From the NCBI RefSeq assembly GCF_056712565.1, contig NZ_CM160072.1: a DNA stretch of 64,000 bases. One strand, written 5' to 3'. The notes under the pieces are model-generated. The model ran no database searches and was not told the DNA's origin. It saw only the letters and a program-made list of their open reading frames with translations. Positions 5,325 to 33,924 of the stretch are shown here, in pieces (position 1 is the first letter of the stretch; each line of letters begins with the position of its first letter). Position numbers and translations under genes: made by a program.

Positions 5325-6673
5325 GTCTGCTGCAATTCAGTGGCCTGTTTGTTGTCTGGCTGCTCTGCACGCTGTTTATTGCCACGCTGACCTGGTTTGA
5401 GTTTCGCCGTGTGCGCTTTAACTTCAATGTCTTCTTTTCATTGCTGTTTTTGCTCACCTTTTTCTTCGGCTTTCCGCTGACCAGCGTGCTGGTATTTCGC
5501 TTTGATGTTGGTGTCGCGCCGCCAGAAATCTTGTTGCAGGCGTTGCTTTCTGCAGGCTGCTTCTACGCGGTTTACTATGTCACCTACAAAACCCGTCTAC
5601 GCAAACGCGTTGCTGATGCACCGCGCCGTCCGCTGTTTACCATGAACCGCGTGGAGACCAATCTCACGTGGGTGATCCTGATGGGCATCGCTCTGGTGAG
5701 CGTCGGCATCTTCTTCATGCACAACGGCTTTTTGCTGTTCCGGCTTAATTCTTACAGTCAGATCTTTTCCAGCGAAGTCTCCGGCGTGGCATTAAAACGC
5801 TTCTTTTACTTTTTCATCCCGGCGATGCTGGTGGTTTATTTTCTGCGCCAGGATAGCAAAGCGTGGCTGTTTTTCCTCGTCAGCACGGTTGCCTTTGGCT
5901 TGTTGACTTACATGATTGTCGGCGGCACTCGCGCCAATATCATCATCGCATTCGCTATCTTCCTGTTTATTGGCATTATTCGCGGCTGGATTTCGTTGTG
6001 GATGCTGGCGGCGGCGGGCGTGCTGGGGATTGTGGGCATGTTCTGGCTGGCGCTAAAACGCTATGGAATGAATGTGAGCGGCGATGAAGCGTTCTATACG
6101 TTTCTCTATCTCACTCGCGACACCTTCTCGCCGTGGGAGAATCTGGCGTTGCTGTTGCAGAACTACGACAACATCGACTTCCAGGGCCTGGCTCCAATTG
6201 TCCGCGATTTCTATGTCTTTATCCCTTCCTGGCTGTGGCCGGGTCGCCCGAGTATGGTGCTGAACTCCGCCAACTACTTTACCTGGGAAGTGCTGAATAA
6301 CCACTCCGGACTGGCGATCTCGCCTACGCTTATAGGCTCACTGGTTGTTATGGGCGGCGCGTTGTTCATCCCGCTCGGGGCGATTGTGGTTGGACTGATT
6401 ATCAAATGGTTCGACTGGCTGTATGAGCTGGGCAACCGCGAGACTAATCGCTATAAGGCTGCGATATTGCACAGTTTCTGCTTCGGGGCGATCTTCAATA
6501 TGATCGTGCTGGCGCGTGAAGGGCTGGATTCGTTTGTCTCACGCGTGGTCTTTTTTATCGTGGTCTTCGGCGCATGTCTGATGATCGCAAAACTGTTGTA
6601 CTGGCTTTTTGAAAGCGCCGGACTCATTCATAAACGAACAAAATCATCGCTCCGGACGCAGGTTGAAGGATAA
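5321..6673 (+). CDS. wzyE: ECA polymerase
   Basis: 450 aa polytopic membrane protein; synteny. Confidence 0.85.
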
Positions 6674-6675
6674 CA

Positions 6676-7416
6676 ATGAATAACAACACCACGGCACCGA
6701 CCTATACGCTGCGTGGCTTACAGTTGATTGGTTGGCGTGATATGCAGCACGCCCTCGATTATCTGTTCGCTGACGGGCAGCTTAAGCAGGGAACGCTGGT
6801 TGCCATTAATGCCGAAAAAATGCTGACCATTGAAGATAACGCTGAGGTCAGGGAGTTAATTAACGCTGCCGAATTTAAATATGCGGATGGCATAAGCGTT
6901 GTACGTTCAGTACGTAAAAAGTACCCGCAGGCGCAGGTTTCCCGCGTTGCTGGGGCCGATCTCTGGGAAGAGCTGATGGCGCGCGCAGGCAAAGAAGGGA
7001 CACAGGTATTTCTTGTGGGCGGTAAACCTGAAGTGCTGGCGCAAACTGAAGCTAAACTGCGCAACCAGTGGAATGTGAATATCGTTGGCAGTCAGGATGG
7101 TTATTTTAAACCCGAGCAGCGTCAGGCGCTGTTTGAACGCATTCATGCCAGCGGAGCGCAAATCGTCACCGTTGCGATGGGAGCGCCAAAGCAGGAGATC
7201 TTCATGCGCGACTGCCGTCTGGTGCATCCAGATGCGCTGTATATGGGCGTTGGCGGGACCTACGATGTTTTCACCGGTCACGTAAAACGCGCACCGAAAA
7301 TCTGGCAAACGCTGGGGCTGGAGTGGCTCTACCGCCTGCTTTCGCAGCCGAGCCGCATTAAGCGTCAGCTTCGTTTGCTGCGTTATTTACGCTGGCATTA
7401 CACCGGCAACCTCTGA
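6676..7416 (+). CDS. wecG: UDP-ManNAcA:lipid I transferase
   Basis: 246 aa; last gene of ECA cluster. Confidence 0.85.
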
Positions 7417-7434
7417 TTTTCCTCTCTTTGTAAA

Positions 7435-7472
7435 GCGACGGAGTGGTCACTTCGTCGCCTGTCTGCTTTTTT
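7435..7472 (+). terminator. possible terminator after wecG
   Basis: gcgacg...cgtcgc inverted repeat followed a few nt later by a T6 run. Confidence 0.35.
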
Positions 7473-7606
7473 ATTACACAAAGCATTCAAATTTTTAATG
7501 CTTTATTTGCCATTTCTCCTGAATTACGAAAACATTCGCAACACTCGATGTACCCATAACGATAAACGGTAACACCGGAAAGCATGCAAACACAACACGA
7601 GGATTT

Positions 7607-8992
7607 ATGGCAGATAACAAACCAGAGCTACAGCGTGGGCTGGAAGCTCGACATATCGAACTCATCGCCCTGGGGGGCACCATTGGCGTCGGCCTGTTTA
7701 TGGGGGCCGCCAGTACCCTGAAATGGGCCGGGCCATCCGTATTGTTGGCCTATATCATCGCCGGGCTGTTCGTCTTTTTCATCATGCGTTCAATGGGCGA
7801 AATGTTGTTCCTCGAACCGGTTACCGGTTCGTTCGCCGTTTACGCGCATCGTTATATGAGCCCGTTCTTTGGTTATCTCACCGCCTGGTCTTACTGGTTT
7901 ATGTGGATGGCGGTGGGGATCTCAGAAATCACCGCCATTGGCGTTTATGTCCAGTTCTGGTTCCCGGAGATGGCGCAGTGGATACCCGCATTGATCGCGG
8001 TGGCGCTGGTGGCGTTGGCGAATCTGGCTGCGGTGAGGTTGTACGGCGAAATCGAGTTCTGGTTCGCGATGATCAAAGTCACCACGATTATCGTGATGAT
8101 TGTCATTGGCCTGGGCGTGATTTTCTTTGGCTTTGGCAATGGCGGGCAGTCGATTGGTTTTAGCAATCTCACAGAGCATGGCGGTTTCTTTGCTGGTGGC
8201 TGGAAAGGGTTCCTGACCGCATTGTGTATTGTGGTGGCGTCCTACCAGGGCGTGGAGCTGATTGGCATTACTGCCGGTGAAGCGAAGAATCCGCAGGTGA
8301 CGCTGCGCAGTGCCGTAGGCAAGGTGCTGTGGCGAATCCTGATTTTCTACGTTGGCGCGATTTTCGTTATCGTTACTATCTTCCCGTGGAATGAAATAGG
8401 CAGCAACGGTAGCCCGTTCGTACTGACTTTCGCCAAAATCGGCATTACCGCAGCGGCGGGCATTATCAACTTTGTGGTTCTGACGGCTGCGCTCTCTGGC
8501 TGTAACAGCGGCATGTACAGTTGCGGACGTATGCTCTACGCACTGGCGAAAAACCGTCAGTTACCGGCGGCAATGGCGAAAGTTTCCCGTCACGGCGTAC
8601 CGGTTGCGGGTGTGGCAGTATCTATTGCTATTCTGCTAATTGGCTCATGCCTGAACTACATCATTCCCAATCCGCAGCGTGTGTTTGTTTACGTCTACAG
8701 TGCCAGCGTGCTTCCGGGGATGGTGCCATGGTTTGTGATATTGATAAGCCAGCTGCGTTTTCGTCGTGCGCATAAAGCAGCAATTGCCAGCCATCCGTTC
8801 CGCTCAATCCTGTTCCCTTGGGCCAACTACGTAACAATGGCATTCCTGATTTGCGTTTTGATCGGCATGTACTTTAATGAAGATACGCGTATGTCGCTGT
8901 TTGTCGGCATCATCTTTATGCTGGTGGTGACGGCGATTTATAAAGTTTTTGGGCTTAATCGCCACGGTAAAGCGCATAAACTGGAGGAATAA
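7607..8992 (+). CDS. yifK: APC-family amino acid permease
   Basis: 461 aa, 12-TM permease sequence; synteny. Confidence 0.85.
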
Positions 8993-27269: not shown

Positions 27270-29432
27270 ATGGACGTTTCTTACCTGCTCGACAGCCTTA
27301 ATGACAAACAGCGCGAAGCGGTGGCCGCGCCACGCAGCAACCTTCTGGTGCTGGCGGGCGCGGGCAGTGGTAAGACGCGCGTACTGGTGCATCGTATCGC
27401 CTGGCTGATGAGCGTGGAAAACTGCTCGCCATACTCGATTATGGCGGTAACGTTTACCAACAAAGCGGCGGCGGAGATGCGTCATCGTATCGGGCAGCTG
27501 ATGGGCACCAGCCAGGGCGGCATGTGGGTCGGCACCTTCCACGGGCTGGCGCACCGTCTGCTGCGTGCGCACCATATGGACGCCAATCTGCCGCAGGATT
27601 TTCAGATCCTCGACAGCGAGGACCAGCTACGCCTGCTCAAACGCCTAATCAAGGCGATGAACCTCGACGAGAAGCAGTGGCCGCCGCGCCAGGCAATGTG
27701 GTACATCAACAGCCAGAAAGATGAGGGGCTGCGTCCGCATCATATTCAGAGCTACGGTAATCCGGTGGAGCAGACCTGGCAGAAGGTGTATCAGGCGTAT
27801 CAGGAAGCGTGTGACCGCGCGGGCCTGGTGGACTTCGCCGAGCTGCTGCTACGTGCTCACGAGTTGTGGCTTAACAAGCCGCATATCCTTCAGCACTATC
27901 GCGAACGGTTTACCAATATCCTGGTGGACGAATTCCAGGATACCAACAACATTCAGTATGCGTGGATCCGACTGCTGGCAGGCGATACTGGCAAAGTGAT
28001 GATCGTTGGCGATGACGACCAGTCAATCTACGGCTGGCGCGGAGCGCAGGTGGAGAATATTCAGCGTTTCCTCAATGATTTCCCCGGTGCTGAAACTATC
28101 CGTCTGGAGCAGAACTACCGCTCTACCAGCAATATTCTGAGCGCCGCTAACGCCCTGATTGAAAACAATAACGGGCGTCTGGGTAAAAAACTGTGGACCG
28201 ATGGCGCGGACGGTGAGCCTATTTCCCTCTATTGCGCTTTTAACGAACTCGACGAAGCGCGTTTTGTGGTTAACCGCATCAAAACCTGGCAGGACAACGG
28301 CGGGGCGCTTGCCGAGTGCGCCATTCTCTACCGCAGCAACGCCCAGTCGCGTGTGCTGGAAGAGGCGTTATTGCAGGCGAGTATGCCGTATCGTATTTAC
28401 GGCGGGATGCGCTTCTTCGAACGCCAGGAAATCAAAGATGCGCTCTCGTATCTGCGCCTGATTGCCAACCGCAACGACGACGCGGCCTTTGAGCGTGTGG
28501 TTAATACGCCAACGCGGGGTATTGGTGACCGGACGCTGGACGTGGTACGTCAGACATCGCGCGATCGCCAGTTAACACTCTGGCAGGCATGTCGTGAACT
28601 GTTGCAGGAAAAAGCCCTCGCCGGACGTGCTGCCAGCGCCTTACAGCGGTTTATGGAGCTGATCGACGCCTTAGCGCAGGAAACTGCCGATATGCCGCTG
28701 CATGTACAGACTGACCGGGTAATTAAAGACTCCGGCCTGCGCACCATGTACGAGCAGGAGAAGGGCGAAAAAGGTCAGACGCGTATCGAAAACTTAGAGG
28801 AACTGGTGACGGCAACGCGCCAGTTCAGCTACAACGAAGAAGACGAAGATTTAATGCCGCTGCAGGCATTCCTCTCCCATGCGGCGCTGGAAGCGGGCGA
28901 GGGGCAGGCGGATACCTGGCAGGACGCGGTGCAGTTGATGACGCTACACTCGGCGAAAGGTCTGGAATTCCCGCAGGTGTTTATCGTTGGTATGGAAGAG
29001 GGCATGTTCCCAAGCCAGATGTCGCTGGATGAAGGCGGGCGTCTGGAAGAAGAACGCCGTCTGGCCTACGTTGGCGTAACCCGCGCGATGCAGAAACTGA
29101 CGCTGACCTACGCGGAAACCCGCCGTCTATATGGCAAAGAGGTTTACCATCGCCCGTCGCGCTTTATCGGTGAGTTGCCGGAAGAGTGTGTGGAAGAGGT
29201 GCGCCTGCGCGCCACGGTAAGCCGCCCGGTCAGCCATCAACGGATGGGGACGCCGATGGTCGAGAACGACAGCGGCTACAAGCTCGGCCAGCGCGTACGC
29301 CACGCTAAGTTTGGTGAAGGCACCATCGTCAATATGGAAGGCAGCGGTGAGCATAGCCGTTTGCAGGTGGCGTTCCAGGGCCAGGGTATTAAATGGCTGG
29401 TGGCGGCTTACGCCCGGTTGGAGACGGTGTGA
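27270..29432 (+). CDS. uvrD: DNA helicase II
   Basis: Start at MDVSYLLDSLN (720 aa); Walker A GAGSGKT; the ORF-track 782 aa version is an artefactual upstream extension into yigB. Confidence 0.9.
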   Translation: MDVSYLLDSLNDKQREAVAAPRSNLLVLAGAGSGKTRVLVHRIAWLMSVENCSPYSIMAVTFTNKAAAEMRHRIGQLMGTSQGGMWVGTFHGLAHRLLRAHHMDANLPQDFQILDSEDQLRLLKRLIKAMNLDEKQWPPRQAMWYINSQKDEGLRPHHIQSYGNPVEQTWQKVYQAYQEACDRAGLVDFAELLLRAHELWLNKPHILQHYRERFTNILVDEFQDTNNIQYAWIRLLAGDTGKVMIVGDDDQSIYGWRGAQVENIQRFLNDFPGAETIRLEQNYRSTSNILSAANALIENNNGRLGKKLWTDGADGEPISLYCAFNELDEARFVVNRIKTWQDNGGALAECAILYRSNAQSRVLEEALLQASMPYRIYGGMRFFERQEIKDALSYLRLIANRNDDAAFERVVNTPTRGIGDRTLDVVRQTSRDRQLTLWQACRELLQEKALAGRAASALQRFMELIDALAQETADMPLHVQTDRVIKDSGLRTMYEQEKGEKGQTRIENLEELVTATRQFSYNEEDEDLMPLQAFLSHAALEAGEGQADTWQDAVQLMTLHSAKGLEFPQVFIVGMEEGMFPSQMSLDEGGRLEEERRLAYVGVTRAMQKLTLTYAETRRLYGKEVYHRPSRFIGELPEECVEEVRLRATVSRPVSHQRMGTPMVENDSGYKLGQRVRHAKFGEGTIVNMEGSGEHSRLQVAFQGQGIKWLVAAYARLETV

Positions 29433-29476
29433 CGTTGCGGAATGCGGTGCGCCATACCGCATTCCGCATCAGCACC

Positions 29477-30379
29477 TTACTTAGCGCACTTCTTCACATC
29501 AATATTCCAGTCAGCACCAGACGCAACCTGATGTTTCTGCGCGAAATTATCCATATTCAGCGCCACGGAAACATTCAATAAGCTGTTCAGATACACCATC
29601 GGCTGGCCTTCCGGCACATCGCCGAAGCTTGCGACATACGGCATTTTCCCTGCGTATTTTTGCTGGGAACCTTCGGAAATGGTCACACACAACGTGTCGT
29701 TGAGTTTGATTCCTGCCTGATTCAGCAACTCGTCGCTGATATTGCTCCAGACGTTGCCGTACTGAATATCGAGAATCGGGATATTGCCCTTCACTTCACC
29801 TTTTGTTGCTTTGGCTTTCTGATAAGAAAGTTCGACAACTTTTGCAGGAAGCTCTGGCCCCACCTGCTCGAACGTGATCGCCCCGGAAGCCAGACGTGCA
29901 CCGGTGTAGGCATACACGTCACGACCGTGGAAGGTATATGACTTTTCGGAACCTTTCAGACGGTTGGTTTTTTCATCGATTTGCCGGACGCTCTCAATAC
30001 CCAGCGATTCCGCCACCAACGTGAGCGTACCGTTATCTGGTGAAACGAAGTACTGACCATTTTTGGTTTTCAGCACTACCGATTTACGGTCTGTACCAAC
30101 ACCTGGATCGACCACGCTAACAAACACCGAACCTTGCGGCCAGTAACTGGCAGTCTGATACAGGCGGTAAGCGCCTTCCCAGATGTTATACGGTGGAATT
30201 TCGTGTGTTAAATCAAATATTTTAAGATTATGGTCAACGCCGAAAGCGACCCCTTTCATCGCCGAGACGGCGCCATCTTTCAGGCTAAAATCCGTTTGTA
30301 AAATCAAAGCGTTATCCGCATAAGCGGATGATGACCCCAGACAGGTTAATAAAAATAATGTTGCGAGCGTTTTTTTCAT
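29477..30379 (-). CDS. signal-peptide-bearing DUF62-like (SAM hydroxide adenosyltransferase family) protein
   Basis: 300 aa; predicted signal peptide MKKTLATLFLLTCLGSSSAYA; motifs TDFSLKDGAVSAMKGV and VVDPGVGTDR resemble the DUF62/fluorinase family; not in K-12 as I recall. Confidence 0.55.
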   Translation of the reverse strand: MKKTLATLFLLTCLGSSSAYADNALILQTDFSLKDGAVSAMKGVAFGVDHNLKIFDLTHEIPPYNIWEGAYRLYQTASYWPQGSVFVSVVDPGVGTDRKSVVLKTKNGQYFVSPDNGTLTLVAESLGIESVRQIDEKTNRLKGSEKSYTFHGRDVYAYTGARLASGAITFEQVGPELPAKVVELSYQKAKATKGEVKGNIPILDIQYGNVWSNISDELLNQAGIKLNDTLCVTISEGSQQKYAGKMPYVASFGDVPEGQPMVYLNSLLNVSVALNMDNFAQKHQVASGADWNIDVKKCAK

Positions 30380-30461
30380 TTTTGTTTCCCTTCATTTATC
30401 TGATGATTTTCCAGCTGTGTAGCCAGCCCCAGTTTGTCTGGCCTCCTCGAGTGTACAATGT

Positions 30462-31226
30462 TTAACCTTTCTGCTCGACGGAAATCATGGTGACAAAAGG
30501 ATAGCGTTGCCACGGGATTGCCTCGCCTTTCATATACATATGTGAAATTGTGCCATCAAGATAAAGCAGCTGCTCAACGTTCAGTTTCGCTTTGGCATAA
30601 CAGGCAAAATCATAAAAATTTGTCGCCTGCTGGCTCAACAAAAACACGGCGTTCCCATGTTTATTAATCCCAACACCGTTACGAATTTTACGTGAGGCGA
30701 CGTTGGGATGAATACGCGGATTAATTACACCGTTTTCCATCAACAATGGCCCTGACTGCACCGCAAACTGAATCTCTTTACTGGTTTTAAAGGCATCCAG
30801 ACGAACGATGCCGACTTTATCTCCCGCGACATAAAACACTCCGCCAGGACGAATAAAGAAATTCCCTTCACCTGAAGCGAGATTTAACGCCACCTTCTGC
30901 TGACCGTTTTCGATGTACAAACCGAGCGGCGCATAGCTTTCATCATAGATGCCGCCGTTCATCGCCATCTGCACCTGACCCTGACTATTAATATCCGCCA
31001 GCAGAGCATGTAACGTTCCCCACGCTTCGCCATTGGCTTTTTGCCAGTACATTTTCACCCGCTCTGTTTGAGGATTAACGGTATACGCCTGTACGGTCAG
31101 CGTCGGATCTGAGGGTGCGCAATCATCAGCGGCAACAGCAAACAAGGGAAGTAAGGTGAGGGTGAGAAAAATCCGTTTGAGATTCAAGGTGATCATTCCT
31201 TTACCAATGAATAGCCGATGCGCCAT
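30462..31226 (-). CDS. yigE: DUF2233-family exported protein YigE
   Basis: 254 aa with signal peptide; between uvrD and corA. Confidence 0.7.
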   Translation of the reverse strand: MAHRLFIGKGMITLNLKRIFLTLTLLPLFAVAADDCAPSDPTLTVQAYTVNPQTERVKMYWQKANGEAWGTLHALLADINSQGQVQMAMNGGIYDESYAPLGLYIENGQQKVALNLASGEGNFFIRPGGVFYVAGDKVGIVRLDAFKTSKEIQFAVQSGPLLMENGVINPRIHPNVASRKIRNGVGINKHGNAVFLLSQQATNFYDFACYAKAKLNVEQLLYLDGTISHMYMKGEAIPWQRYPFVTMISVEQKG

Positions 31227-31595
31227 TATAGGCCCTGAATGTGGGATTTTTTTATCCTGTTAGCGACCTTGACGAGTACCAAAAAGCGCGAAGTTCAACT
31301 ATTGTTCTGTGGTGTTCTGTTGCGTGTTGACGGCAAAATTTTGCTGGCGTAACATGCGCGCACGATCACTCTAAGAGGACATTCGCCTTGGACACACCCA
31401 GTAGATACTGGCTCATTATCCTGTCATCCAGGATCAACTCCTAAGGCTATCCCTTTTTGCTGATAGCCTTAGCGGTTGTCAGCGACCTCAATTTTTCCCG
31501 TCGCGCTGAGTCAGGCTGTTTAATGGTCTGAAACCCAATTTGTTTCTGTGTGCCCACCGAACTGTCCGATATTTTAAGCATTGGGAGTCCCGGTC

Positions 31596-32581: not shown

Positions 32582-33079
32582 TTATTGCTGAAAATTGTCT
32601 TTTTCAAAGTCATGCGGGTTGAACACTCGCTCTATCTTATTTTCCTGGGTTAGTTGATACTCATTGTTATCAGCAATAAAAAAATGAGTATTACGGTAAG
32701 GATATTCATTAATAACCATTAAATAGTTTTTTACGATGCAATTATCATTGCTCTTAATCGTCGGGAAACAGTAGAGATCTTCATACGGCCCTTCGATATA
32801 TTTTTTATAGTCAGTGAAGCCATTACCGATATCAATAACATACCAGGTATGCCAACTATCTTCTGGTAGGGGATTTTGACTTTTAATTTCATCCTGATGC
32901 TTCAGATACCAATTTATTTTATCGCTATCAGTCCATGGCAGATGATCAACGACCAGAAAGACTGAATTGCCAGCATCAGAGTATGTATACAAAATCTGTA
33001 CAGGACGCAATATCCATAAATTATAGATGCAGCATAGAAGAAATAAATATAATATAATTTTCTGGAGTTTTCTTTTCAT
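32582..33079 (-). CDS. small membrane-anchored protein, candidate immunity/partner protein (possibly DUF943-like)
   Basis: 165 aa; N-terminal hydrophobic anchor; very AT-rich codon usage; 4-nt overlap with upstream gene. Confidence 0.5.
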   Translation of the reverse strand: MKRKLQKIILYLFLLCCIYNLWILRPVQILYTYSDAGNSVFLVVDHLPWTDSDKINWYLKHQDEIKSQNPLPEDSWHTWYVIDIGNGFTDYKKYIEGPYEDLYCFPTIKSNDNCIVKNYLMVINEYPYRNTHFFIADNNEYQLTQENKIERVFNPHDFEKDNFQQ

Positions 33080-33924
33080 AGATAATTTTCGATTCTTTCG
33101 ATAGTGTTAAAATTGGTGAAAAAAGGTTTGAAAGCAAAGTCTTTATGCCGTTGTAAAAAGAACCATATGCGAAAAAATCTATACTTGTTGTAAATCTTGT
33201 TTTTTATATCAGTCACATCCAAACCAAAGTGGTCTTGTGCTATGAAATGAATGGTAGCGCTCCAGCCCATAGGATATTTTTGAAAATTTAAAAGAGATAT
33301 TTTTTGAGCTGAGATATCATGAATGCTGATTCCCAGGCCATTAAAATTATCTTTAAAATCATTGAATTTATTTAGTCTTGATGAAAGTAATTCGGTCTTA
33401 ATCTTTTGTAGGAGAAGAGGCCGGTATCCTATCGTAGGTGTTGAAGAAATATCATTTTCGATACATTCTTTGATTACACGTATTGGGCTATTATAATCAT
33501 ATTTGTTTATTCGTTCATGAAAAGATAAGTTCAATTCCTGGCTATGGAAACTGTTGCCATTTTCATATCTAAAATGATCAATCAGATCCTGGATGAGTGT
33601 TTTGTATTGTCCAAAAAAGGAAAACATTTTTGCCAGATCTTTCATTTCTGCAAATAAAATATCAATACATTCACTTTGTGATATTTTTGTTCCAGAAGTT
33701 GGAACACTAAAAGCACCATAAGTAGAATTCGGCCCAGGAAAATGGTATTTAATGAGGCGGTAAGGATCAACTTTTGCAGAGATGTCGCTTAAGCCGAGAG
33801 AGAGAAAATCTTGTTCTTCCATATCCCCATACTGCATATCATCAGCAGAAAAATCATCGAATAAAGTAATAGTTTCGAAAAGTGTACAGGGCATATTAAT
33901 TGATGAGCCTAATATGTTGTTCAT
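33076..33924 (-). CDS. hypothetical protein, candidate toxin/effector-like (possibly DUF3289-like)
   Basis: 282 aa; no signal peptide; AT-rich; translationally coupled to the downstream 165 aa gene; occupies the slot held by yigF/yigG in K-12. Confidence 0.5.
   Translation of the reverse strand: MNNILGSSINMPCTLFETITLFDDFSADDMQYGDMEEQDFLSLGLSDISAKVDPYRLIKYHFPGPNSTYGAFSVPTSGTKISQSECIDILFAEMKDLAKMFSFFGQYKTLIQDLIDHFRYENGNSFHSQELNLSFHERINKYDYNSPIRVIKECIENDISSTPTIGYRPLLLQKIKTELLSSRLNKFNDFKDNFNGLGISIHDISAQKISLLNFQKYPMGWSATIHFIAQDHFGLDVTDIKNKIYNKYRFFRIWFFLQRHKDFAFKPFFTNFNTIERIENYL

Follow-up and report, generated by a model that had tools for sequence, protein, structure and literature searches.

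A gene for a predicted exported member of the DUF62 family, also called the S-adenosylmethionine (SAM) hydroxide adenosyltransferase family, lies between uvrD and yigE in a 64,000-nucleotide stretch of contig NZ_CM160072.1 (NCBI RefSeq assembly GCF_056712565.1), hereafter the window. An earlier note on this DNA had described a 300-residue open reading frame (ORF) on the minus strand between these two genes, and the ORF was found at exactly 29477..30379 (ATG start, 300 codons plus stop), with the uvrD stop codon at 29430-29432 and yigE at 30462..31226 (minus strand) on either side. The product is very probably an exported DUF62 protein of the hydrolase type. Our combined reading, to which we give a probability of about 0.5, is that it is an exported periplasmic SAM-type hydrolase used for scavenging. 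The gene and its family annotation are already known from RefSeq, where its equivalents (WP_000751617.1-like; the UTI89_RS21145 orthologue) carry the name "SAM hydrolase/SAM-dependent halogenase family protein", and the Helicobacter pylori homologue HP0709 (jhp0648) is known as a named uncharacterised locus. New is the exported branch of the DUF62 family; no mention of signal peptides on DUF62 proteins was found in the searchable literature. The analyses below show the family membership and fold, the intactness of the catalytic and ligand-binding residues, the clade-wide conservation of an export signal, strong purifying selection and the evolutionary history; from them we infer what the enzyme acts on, where it is located, whether it has a disulfide and what it does for the cell. 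The gene and its parts are as follows.

29477..30379, minus strand: coding sequence of the predicted exported DUF62 / SAM hydroxide adenosyltransferase family protein (ORF list, Pfam PF01887 and PF20257, RefSeq)
30387..30392, minus strand: Shine-Dalgarno-like AAGGGA at -13..-8 of the first ATG (ATG1), from the upstream sequence
30317..30379, minus strand: predicted Sec-type (signal peptidase I) signal peptide MKKTLATLFLLTCLGSSSAYA, codons 1-21, with predicted cleavage between AYA and DN (n/h/c anatomy)
29480..30316, minus strand: predicted mature enzyme, residues 22-300, with N-terminal domain 26-174 and C-terminal domain 198-291 (Pfam, AlphaFold2, Foldseek)

Export signal and start codon

The n/h/c anatomy of the signal peptide was read from the sequence of the query protein, and orthologues were scored by a heuristic scan. 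The N-terminal leader, MKKTLATLFLLTCLGSSSAYA followed by DNAL, contains two lysines, a 12-residue hydrophobic core, alanine at -3 and -1 and an acidic residue at +1, and reads as a Sec signal throughout (MKK, then TLATLFLLTCLG, then SSSAYA before D). The core falls within the 10-15 residues expected of the hydrophobic region in such signals. It is missing from the solved homologues, all of which start at query residues 23-29, and the first 21-25 residues are therefore an extension. The AlphaFold2 monomer model, built from a 56-sequence alignment, agrees with this division: residues 2-14 form a detached helix with a predicted local distance difference test score (pLDDT) of 55-63, and the globular domain begins at residue 24. 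A comparison of E. coli with H. pylori shows the leader to have evolved about five times faster than the mature part (non-synonymous divergence, dN, of 0.232 vs 0.048), the usual pattern of signal peptides.

The leader was followed through a clade of 81 proteins, namely the query and 80 loci, with one genome per species scanned. Immediately in front of the conserved 'ALVxQTDFG', 76 of the 81 carry a positively charged stretch together with a hydrophobic 10-mer of median Kyte-Doolittle hydropathy 2.6, and five clade members have lipobox-like variants. Leader-bearing proteins are found in Proteobacteria, Bacteroidota, Verrucomicrobiota, Synergistota, Firmicutes, Fusobacteriota, Thermotogota and Planctomycetota. 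Among the 150 nearest representatives of 50%-identity clusters, many have signal-peptide- or lipoprotein-like extensions, and a minority begin directly at the domain like the characterised cytoplasmic enzymes. The arrangement that the earlier note had read from the one sequence, a signal peptide directly before a DUF62 domain, is thus of canonical anatomy and recurs as a predicted feature in 76 of 81 species.

If the signal peptide were unused or an artefact of a wrong start codon, as the earlier note had considered, translation could begin at an internal codon and give a normal cytoplasmic (R)-SAM hydrolase. The TTG at codon 25 would give M-ILQTDF..., which resembles the N-termini of cytoplasmic homologues. 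However, this TTG has no Shine-Dalgarno sequence, whereas ATG1 has AAGGGA, and starting at the following ATG, codon 41, would cost the protein its invariant residue D30; both alternative starts were rejected. Furthermore, the hydrophobic leader is kept in character and not in sequence across the 76 species, and between E. coli and H. pylori it is under a different constraint while its frame stays open without indels. We regard an internally started cytoplasmic enzyme as very improbable, and the suspected start-codon artefact was not borne out.

Equally improbable is a membrane-anchored lipoprotein acylated at Cys13 (LLTC). This cysteine does follow a hydrophobic run, and lipobox-like sequences do occur in the five relatives mentioned above. 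The standard lipobox, [LVI][ASTVI][GAS]C, disallows the threonine found at -1, though, and only about 10% of the clade has Cys13, which some H. pylori alleles lack and which lies upstream of a canonical AXA site. A lipoprotein signal was rejected on the threonine and on the rarity of Cys13 in the clade.

The mature protein contains only two cysteines, which are candidate disulfide partners.

29687..29689, minus strand: codon of C231, candidate disulfide partner of C298 (cysteine co-occurrence in the clade)
29486..29488, minus strand: codon of C298, candidate disulfide partner of C231 (cysteine co-occurrence in the clade)

Both are present in 35 of the 81 proteins and both absent from the other 46; neither ever occurs singly, and cytoplasmic relatives have none of the pair. 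This pattern is compatible with a periplasmic disulfide.

Fold and catalytic residues

The family assignment of the earlier note held in a profile search. Full-length Pfam matches were found to both domains, SAM_HAT_N (PF01887) at residues 26-174 (E=4.8e-53, model positions 2-145/145) and SAM_HAT_C (PF20257) at residues 198-291 (E=3.9e-18, model positions 1-83/84). The sequences of 16 solved DUF62, chlorinase and fluorinase proteins match the window protein, the best being Thermotoga maritima 2ZBU (7.5e-44), and SalL, PH0463, MJ1651 and FlA are among the others. The AlphaFold2 model has a mean pLDDT of 92.5. Comparison with the PDB by Foldseek gave target-normalised template-modelling (TM) scores of 0.91 to 2ZBU and SalL, 0.88 to PH0463 and 0.80-0.84 to fluorinases, and the best 40 PDB matches were all DUF62, chlorinase or fluorinase structures.

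The active-site positions were assigned by alignment to solved relatives, with profile alignment matching D91, R98 and H151 to PH0463 D68, R75 and H127.

30290..30292, minus strand: codon of D30, putative ribose 2'/3'-OH-binding Asp, equivalent to SalL D11 (alignment to SalL 2Q6O)
30107..30109, minus strand: codon of D91, putative catalytic triad Asp, equivalent to PH0463 D68 (alignment to 1WU8/2WR8; 81/81)
30086..30088, minus strand: codon of R98, putative catalytic triad Arg, equivalent to PH0463 R75 (alignment to 1WU8/2WR8; 81/81)
29927..29929, minus strand: codon of H151, putative catalytic triad His, equivalent to PH0463 H127 (alignment to 1WU8/2WR8; 76/81)

D30 is invariant in alignment A2 and is conserved in 80 of the 81 exported proteins (the remaining one has a gap) and in all 27 sequences of the cytoplasmic comparison set used for residue conservation. 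D204 and N209 of the adenine motif are conserved in the exported clade, in which D35 (equivalent to SalL D16) is kept at 98% and S266 (equivalent to SalL S242) in 79/81. The Asp-Arg-His triad activates water, is strictly conserved in DUF62 hydrolases and is missing in halogenases (PMC10491745). The halogenases FlA (1RQP) and SalL (2Q6I) share the fold of the window protein and, with the hydrolases, the SN2 adenosyl-transfer chemistry at C5' of SAM (PMC10491745), but SalL has Tyr70 at the position of D91 and W129-Y130-G131 near H151 (Gly131), and no triad; a halide pocket of Tyr and Ser/Gly marks the halogenase type of active site. The fluorinase model TIGR04507 was not reached either (84.3 bits vs a cut-off of 400). 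Halogenase identity was rejected on the intact triad and the failed fluorinase cut-off, and from the retained triad, ribose and adenine residues the protein is assigned to the hydrolase-type DUF62 proteins and not to the halogenases.

Its closest characterised systems are the DUF62 hydrolases PH0463 (1WU8/2WR8), MJ1651 (2F4N/22UY), Salinispora SaDUF62/StDUF62 and T. maritima 2ZBU. They have the two-domain fold (TM 0.86-0.91), the triad and the ribose-binding Asp in common with the window protein at 30-34% identity, and by analogy with these relatives, whose trimers have their active sites where subunits meet, the protein is probably a trimer. Unlike the window protein, with its predicted cleavable signal peptide and its cysteine pair, they are cytoplasmic and have no leader. 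The window protein also falls in a separate clade, whose members are 56-100% identical to the query.

Proposed reaction and role

We propose that the gene encodes a Sec-exported, soluble periplasmic DUF62 enzyme in which water activated by Asp91, Arg98 and His151 would attack C5' of an adenosyl-sulfonium substrate, releasing adenosine and L-methionine. The compound cleaved would be SAM or one very closely resembling it, for example its (R)-sulfonium epimer or decarboxylated SAM, and the role would be one of scavenging, in which environmental or host-derived SAM that cannot be imported is turned into two importable products.

As all mappable catalytic and ligand-contacting residues are kept, an unchanged reaction, with SAM or something very like it as substrate, is favoured, and we consider SAM-type chemistry rather likely. 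For the characterised DUF62 hydrolases, the proposed task is to clear the intracellular SAM pool of the inactive (R)-epimer (PMC10491745; bioRxiv 2025.08.29.672840); an enzyme in an extracytoplasmic compartment cannot have this cytoplasmic repair role. The earlier note had argued that export implies a different substrate or role. The second half of this stands, in that the compartment and hence the role would differ, while the retained residues argue for the same SAM-type chemistry.

The surroundings of the gene across the clade give no clue of the operon type. The 80 species loci encode proteins 56-97% identical to the query and come from Escherichia, Helicobacter, Aeromonas, Pasteurellaceae, Edwardsiella, Thorsellia, Neisseriales, Chitinophagaceae, Cytophagales and Verrucomicrobiota, and further from Synergistota, Tissierellia, Fusobacteriales, Thermotogota and Planctomycetota; free-living environmental species make up most of the clade. 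When the flanking ORFs of the 81 loci were clustered, no neighbour family recurred across genera. Neighbours recur only within a genus, as in Aeromonas (a GGDEF protein, a DEAD helicase, a cytochrome-c-peroxidase-like protein and RNase T2), and the set in Chitinophaga is a different one. Fusions of exported DUF62 proteins are rare, and their partners are other hydrolase domains: Y_phosphatase3, of the tyrosine phosphatase family, in a Fervidobacterium protein with two copies of SAM_HAT_C (5971-7887 of locus L067; labels of this form denote homologous loci compared with the window), an alpha/beta-hydrolase in P0161 and Peptidase_M15 (D-Ala-D-Ala dipeptidase) in P0204. Anti-phage defence was rejected, as neither the window protein nor its neighbours have a PADLOC match. 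With no conserved neighbour, no defence signature and only rare hydrolase fusions, the enzyme appears to work alone.

Scavenging is the likeliest role, since the enzyme is placed outside the cytoplasm, import of SAM is not known in E. coli and no partner genes are conserved; even so, we put this role forward tentatively, at somewhat less than even odds. Its nearest functional parallel is probably with UshA 5'-nucleotidase and CpdB, periplasmic nucleotide-scavenging hydrolases of E. coli: by analogy, an exported hydrolase would turn a non-importable adenosine compound into importable adenosine. UshA and CpdB have no sequence or fold relation to the window protein, however, and their substrate is a phosphoester where a sulfonium is proposed here.

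In favour of export, the H. pylori orthologue HP0709 is present in an outer-membrane-vesicle proteome (PMC8756444) and is seroreactive (PMC11394471), but because the same proteome also contains ribosomal proteins, the vesicle entry says little about localisation. Several other points weigh against an exported SAM scavenger. The cysteine pair is probably a single evolutionary event, as its 35 carriers form one proteobacterial subclade. Turnover by the characterised DUF62 hydrolases is very slow, and little free SAM occurs outside cells, where it is unstable at neutral pH; together these points weaken a role in bulk nutrition. In the searchable literature, no exported member was found to have been assayed or localised. 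The NCBIfam (R)-SAM hydrolase equivalogs NF058624 and NF053629 were missed by far (131.8 vs 350 and 114.7 vs 470 bits), so that the protein is placed in the superfamily and not in any characterised equivalog, and its substrate specificity may differ. Five positions (K42, Y207, N209, P201 and Y186) are fixed in the exported clade yet different in the cytoplasmic relatives.

The failed equivalog thresholds and the clade-fixed residues would also fit an enzyme of the same localisation but with a different 5'-substituted adenosine as substrate, one whose 5' group leaves readily. Examples are 5'-chloro-5'-deoxyadenosine and its 5'-fluoro counterpart, decarboxylated SAM, and adenosyl-sulfonium antimetabolites or natural products, and the role would be detoxification or catabolism. 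Y207 and N209 lie in the D-x-x-[FY]-G-N adenine motif and, with K42, near ligand-binding motifs; clade members are common among bacteria of soil and water (Chitinophaga, Verrucomicrobia, Aeromonas); and DUF62 family members interconvert 5'-halo-deoxyadenosines and SAM. On the other hand, D35 and S266, the methionine-contacting residues of halogenase structures, are kept, the hydrolase triad is intact and no biosynthetic or catabolic partner genes are linked at the 81 loci. We therefore regard a different adenosyl substrate as possible but doubtful, and retain SAM or a very close analogue as the proposed one.

The Escherichia locus and the Helicobacter homologue

Among 5426 complete E. coli genomes the gene is present in 2413 (~44%), at 95-100% nucleotide identity, and is single-copy and chromosomal in essentially all carriers, with one extra plasmid match. 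Carriers include the B2 strains UTI89, S88, Nissle (EcN) and JJ1886, as well as O157:H7 and BL21(DE3) (NC_012971.2 3890480-3891379, 95% nucleotide identity). The enzymes of a published (R)-SAM hydrolase study were expressed in E. coli BL21 Gold, a relative of BL21(DE3), and the endogenous homologue in the latter is relevant to crude-extract assays.

K-12 has no such gene at this locus, in line with the earlier note. In its place is a 127-bp spacer with a pair of repetitive extragenic palindromic (REP) elements, GCCGGATGCGGTG ... ACGCCGCATCCGGCA (window 29436-29468 vs 347-491 of the K-12 locus L006).

29451..30460, no strand assigned: 1010-bp segment comprising the gene and its 5' region, replaced in K-12 by the 127-bp REP-containing spacer (blastn of L006 vs the window)
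29436..29468, no strand assigned: 13-bp perfect inverted repeat, TGCGGAATGCGGT / ACCGCATTCCGCA, with arms 7 nt apart, in the gap where the uvrD and DUF62 genes converge; REP-like, without a T-tract

The inverted repeat is real, although the earlier note had placed it one position off (29437..29469). Its arms lie at 29436-29448 and 29456-29468, and the RNA hairpin has a folding energy (dG) of -32.6 kcal/mol (z = -5.6 vs shuffles). Its left arm and one of the K-12 REP arms are homologous, which puts the deletion or replacement junction inside a REP-like element, and the hairpin looks REP-derived. Neither strand has a T-tract and a terminator scan made no call, so the hairpin was rejected as an intrinsic terminator; a terminator or mRNA-stabilising role is possible.

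On the other side of the gene, the 82-bp spacer between yigE and the DUF62 gene contains no convincing sigma-70 match and no predicted terminator, and it is without significant structure (z = -1.1). A promoter of its own for the DUF62 gene was rejected on these grounds, and co-transcription with yigE is possible. A functional link with yigE was rejected, as the adjacency is confined to Escherichia and is absent in H. pylori and in a metagenomic contig described below. The yigE gene itself (30462-31226, minus strand) is annotated as a member of the phosphodiester glycosidase (DUF2233) family, and its N-terminus, read from the sequence, resembles a signal peptide. Further along the window, an 18-codon small ORF of the ysgD/CorL family with a TTG start (31388-31444, plus strand; RefSeq annotation) lies upstream of corA. 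The corA-rarD interval (32582-33924, minus strand) holds two overlapping ORFs, annotated in UTI89 as DUF943 family and YPO3983 family proteins, neither of which has a PADLOC match; with 33% GC in a window of 51% GC, this segment looks like a separately acquired accessory pair.

HP0709 and its H. acinonychis orthologue are 88-89% identical to the window protein at the amino-acid level (89% for HP0709), and HP0709 has the same predicted signal peptide architecture. The E. coli and H. pylori genes (the latter at 6001-6903 of locus L002) have the same length and 83% nucleotide identity, with no indels. The ratio of non-synonymous to synonymous divergence (dN/dS) amounts to 0.058 when E. coli is compared with H. 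pylori and to 0.047 inside Escherichia; a ratio of ~0.05-0.06 shows strong purifying selection and, on this comparison, that each of the two hosts has a functional gene. Nearly every H. pylori has HP0709, and the one 90%-identity cluster that contains it comprises 2579 sequences. Its genomic context differs from that in E. coli, being uvrA-hopE-rsmH-HP0708-HP0709-homologue of HP0710.

The next relatives, from Aeromonas, Edwardsiella, Pasteurellaceae and Neisseriales, are 66-76% identical. In a neighbour-joining tree the Helicobacter sequences fall within the enterobacterial branch, beside E. coli. A third lineage, also enterobacterial, is represented by the short metagenomic Logan contig L087 (1-1842; ERR11042197), in which a gene encoding a protein of 88% amino-acid identity is convergent with the 3' end of uvrD, with a 70-residue hydrophobic ORF between the two and no yigE upstream. 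Compared with E. coli, synonymous divergence (dS) is 2.6 for both the L087 gene and its uvrD fragment, vs 1.0 for the H. pylori gene. The GC content of the H. pylori gene is 42.9% against 37.6% in its flanks, and that of the E. coli gene 48.1% against 51%. Synonymous divergence and synteny indicate that the direction of transfer was from the Escherichia lineage to Helicobacter, and that HP0709 is a xenologue of the window gene, captured by an ancestor of H. pylori and H. acinonychis. The simplest reading is of vertical inheritance at the uvrD locus in Enterobacteriaceae, with loss in several E. coli lineages including K-12, and of a transfer to Helicobacter old enough for partial GC adjustment; for this gene, the searchable literature gives no origin or mechanism for HP0709/jhp0648.

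H. pylori needs exogenous methionine. It also has no de novo purine synthesis (PMC13328217), so both products of SAM hydrolysis would be useful to it, a selective reason for keeping the gene. In the literature the function of HP0709 is uncharacterised, and the locus appears only as a match in genome-wide association, serology or proteome studies. A non-synonymous single-nucleotide polymorphism in HP0709 is a hit in a genome-wide association study of gastric cancer (PMC6090961), and anti-HP0709 antibodies are inversely associated with atrophic gastritis (odds ratio 0.30; PMC11394471). These associations, together with the near-universal presence of the gene in H. pylori after interphylum acquisition and the precedent of adenosine-raising bacterial surface enzymes that manipulate the host (e.g. 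PMC7549952), would suit a host-acting factor: in H. pylori, extraintestinal pathogenic (ExPEC)/B2 E. coli, Aeromonas and Pasteurellaceae the enzyme would generate immunosuppressive extracellular adenosine or deplete SAM locally, serving colonisation or virulence and not nutrition. We consider this improbable, since the association and serology data are correlative, most clade members are free-living environmental bacteria, there is no sign of secretion beyond the periplasm and the gene is also present in the commensal Nissle (EcN) and in the laboratory strain BL21(DE3). Scavenging by a periplasmic enzyme remains the reading that we prefer.

A clade predicted to be exported in at least 81 species of about eight phyla does not fit the account of DUF62 proteins as agents of cytoplasmic repair, and it suggests that bacteria process extracellular SAM, or some compound close to it, outside the cytoplasm. 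For HP0709 it provides a testable biochemical hypothesis and an evolutionary origin in the Escherichia lineage. On a more far-reaching view, which we think unlikely, exported DUF62 proteins would form a widespread and unrecognised class of extracytoplasmic SAM-cleaving enzymes, with which host-adapted carriers harvest host SAM and raise local adenosine. If true, harvest of host SAM would explain both the fixation of the gene in the purine- and methionine-dependent H. pylori and the association of HP0709 alleles with gastric cancer risk.

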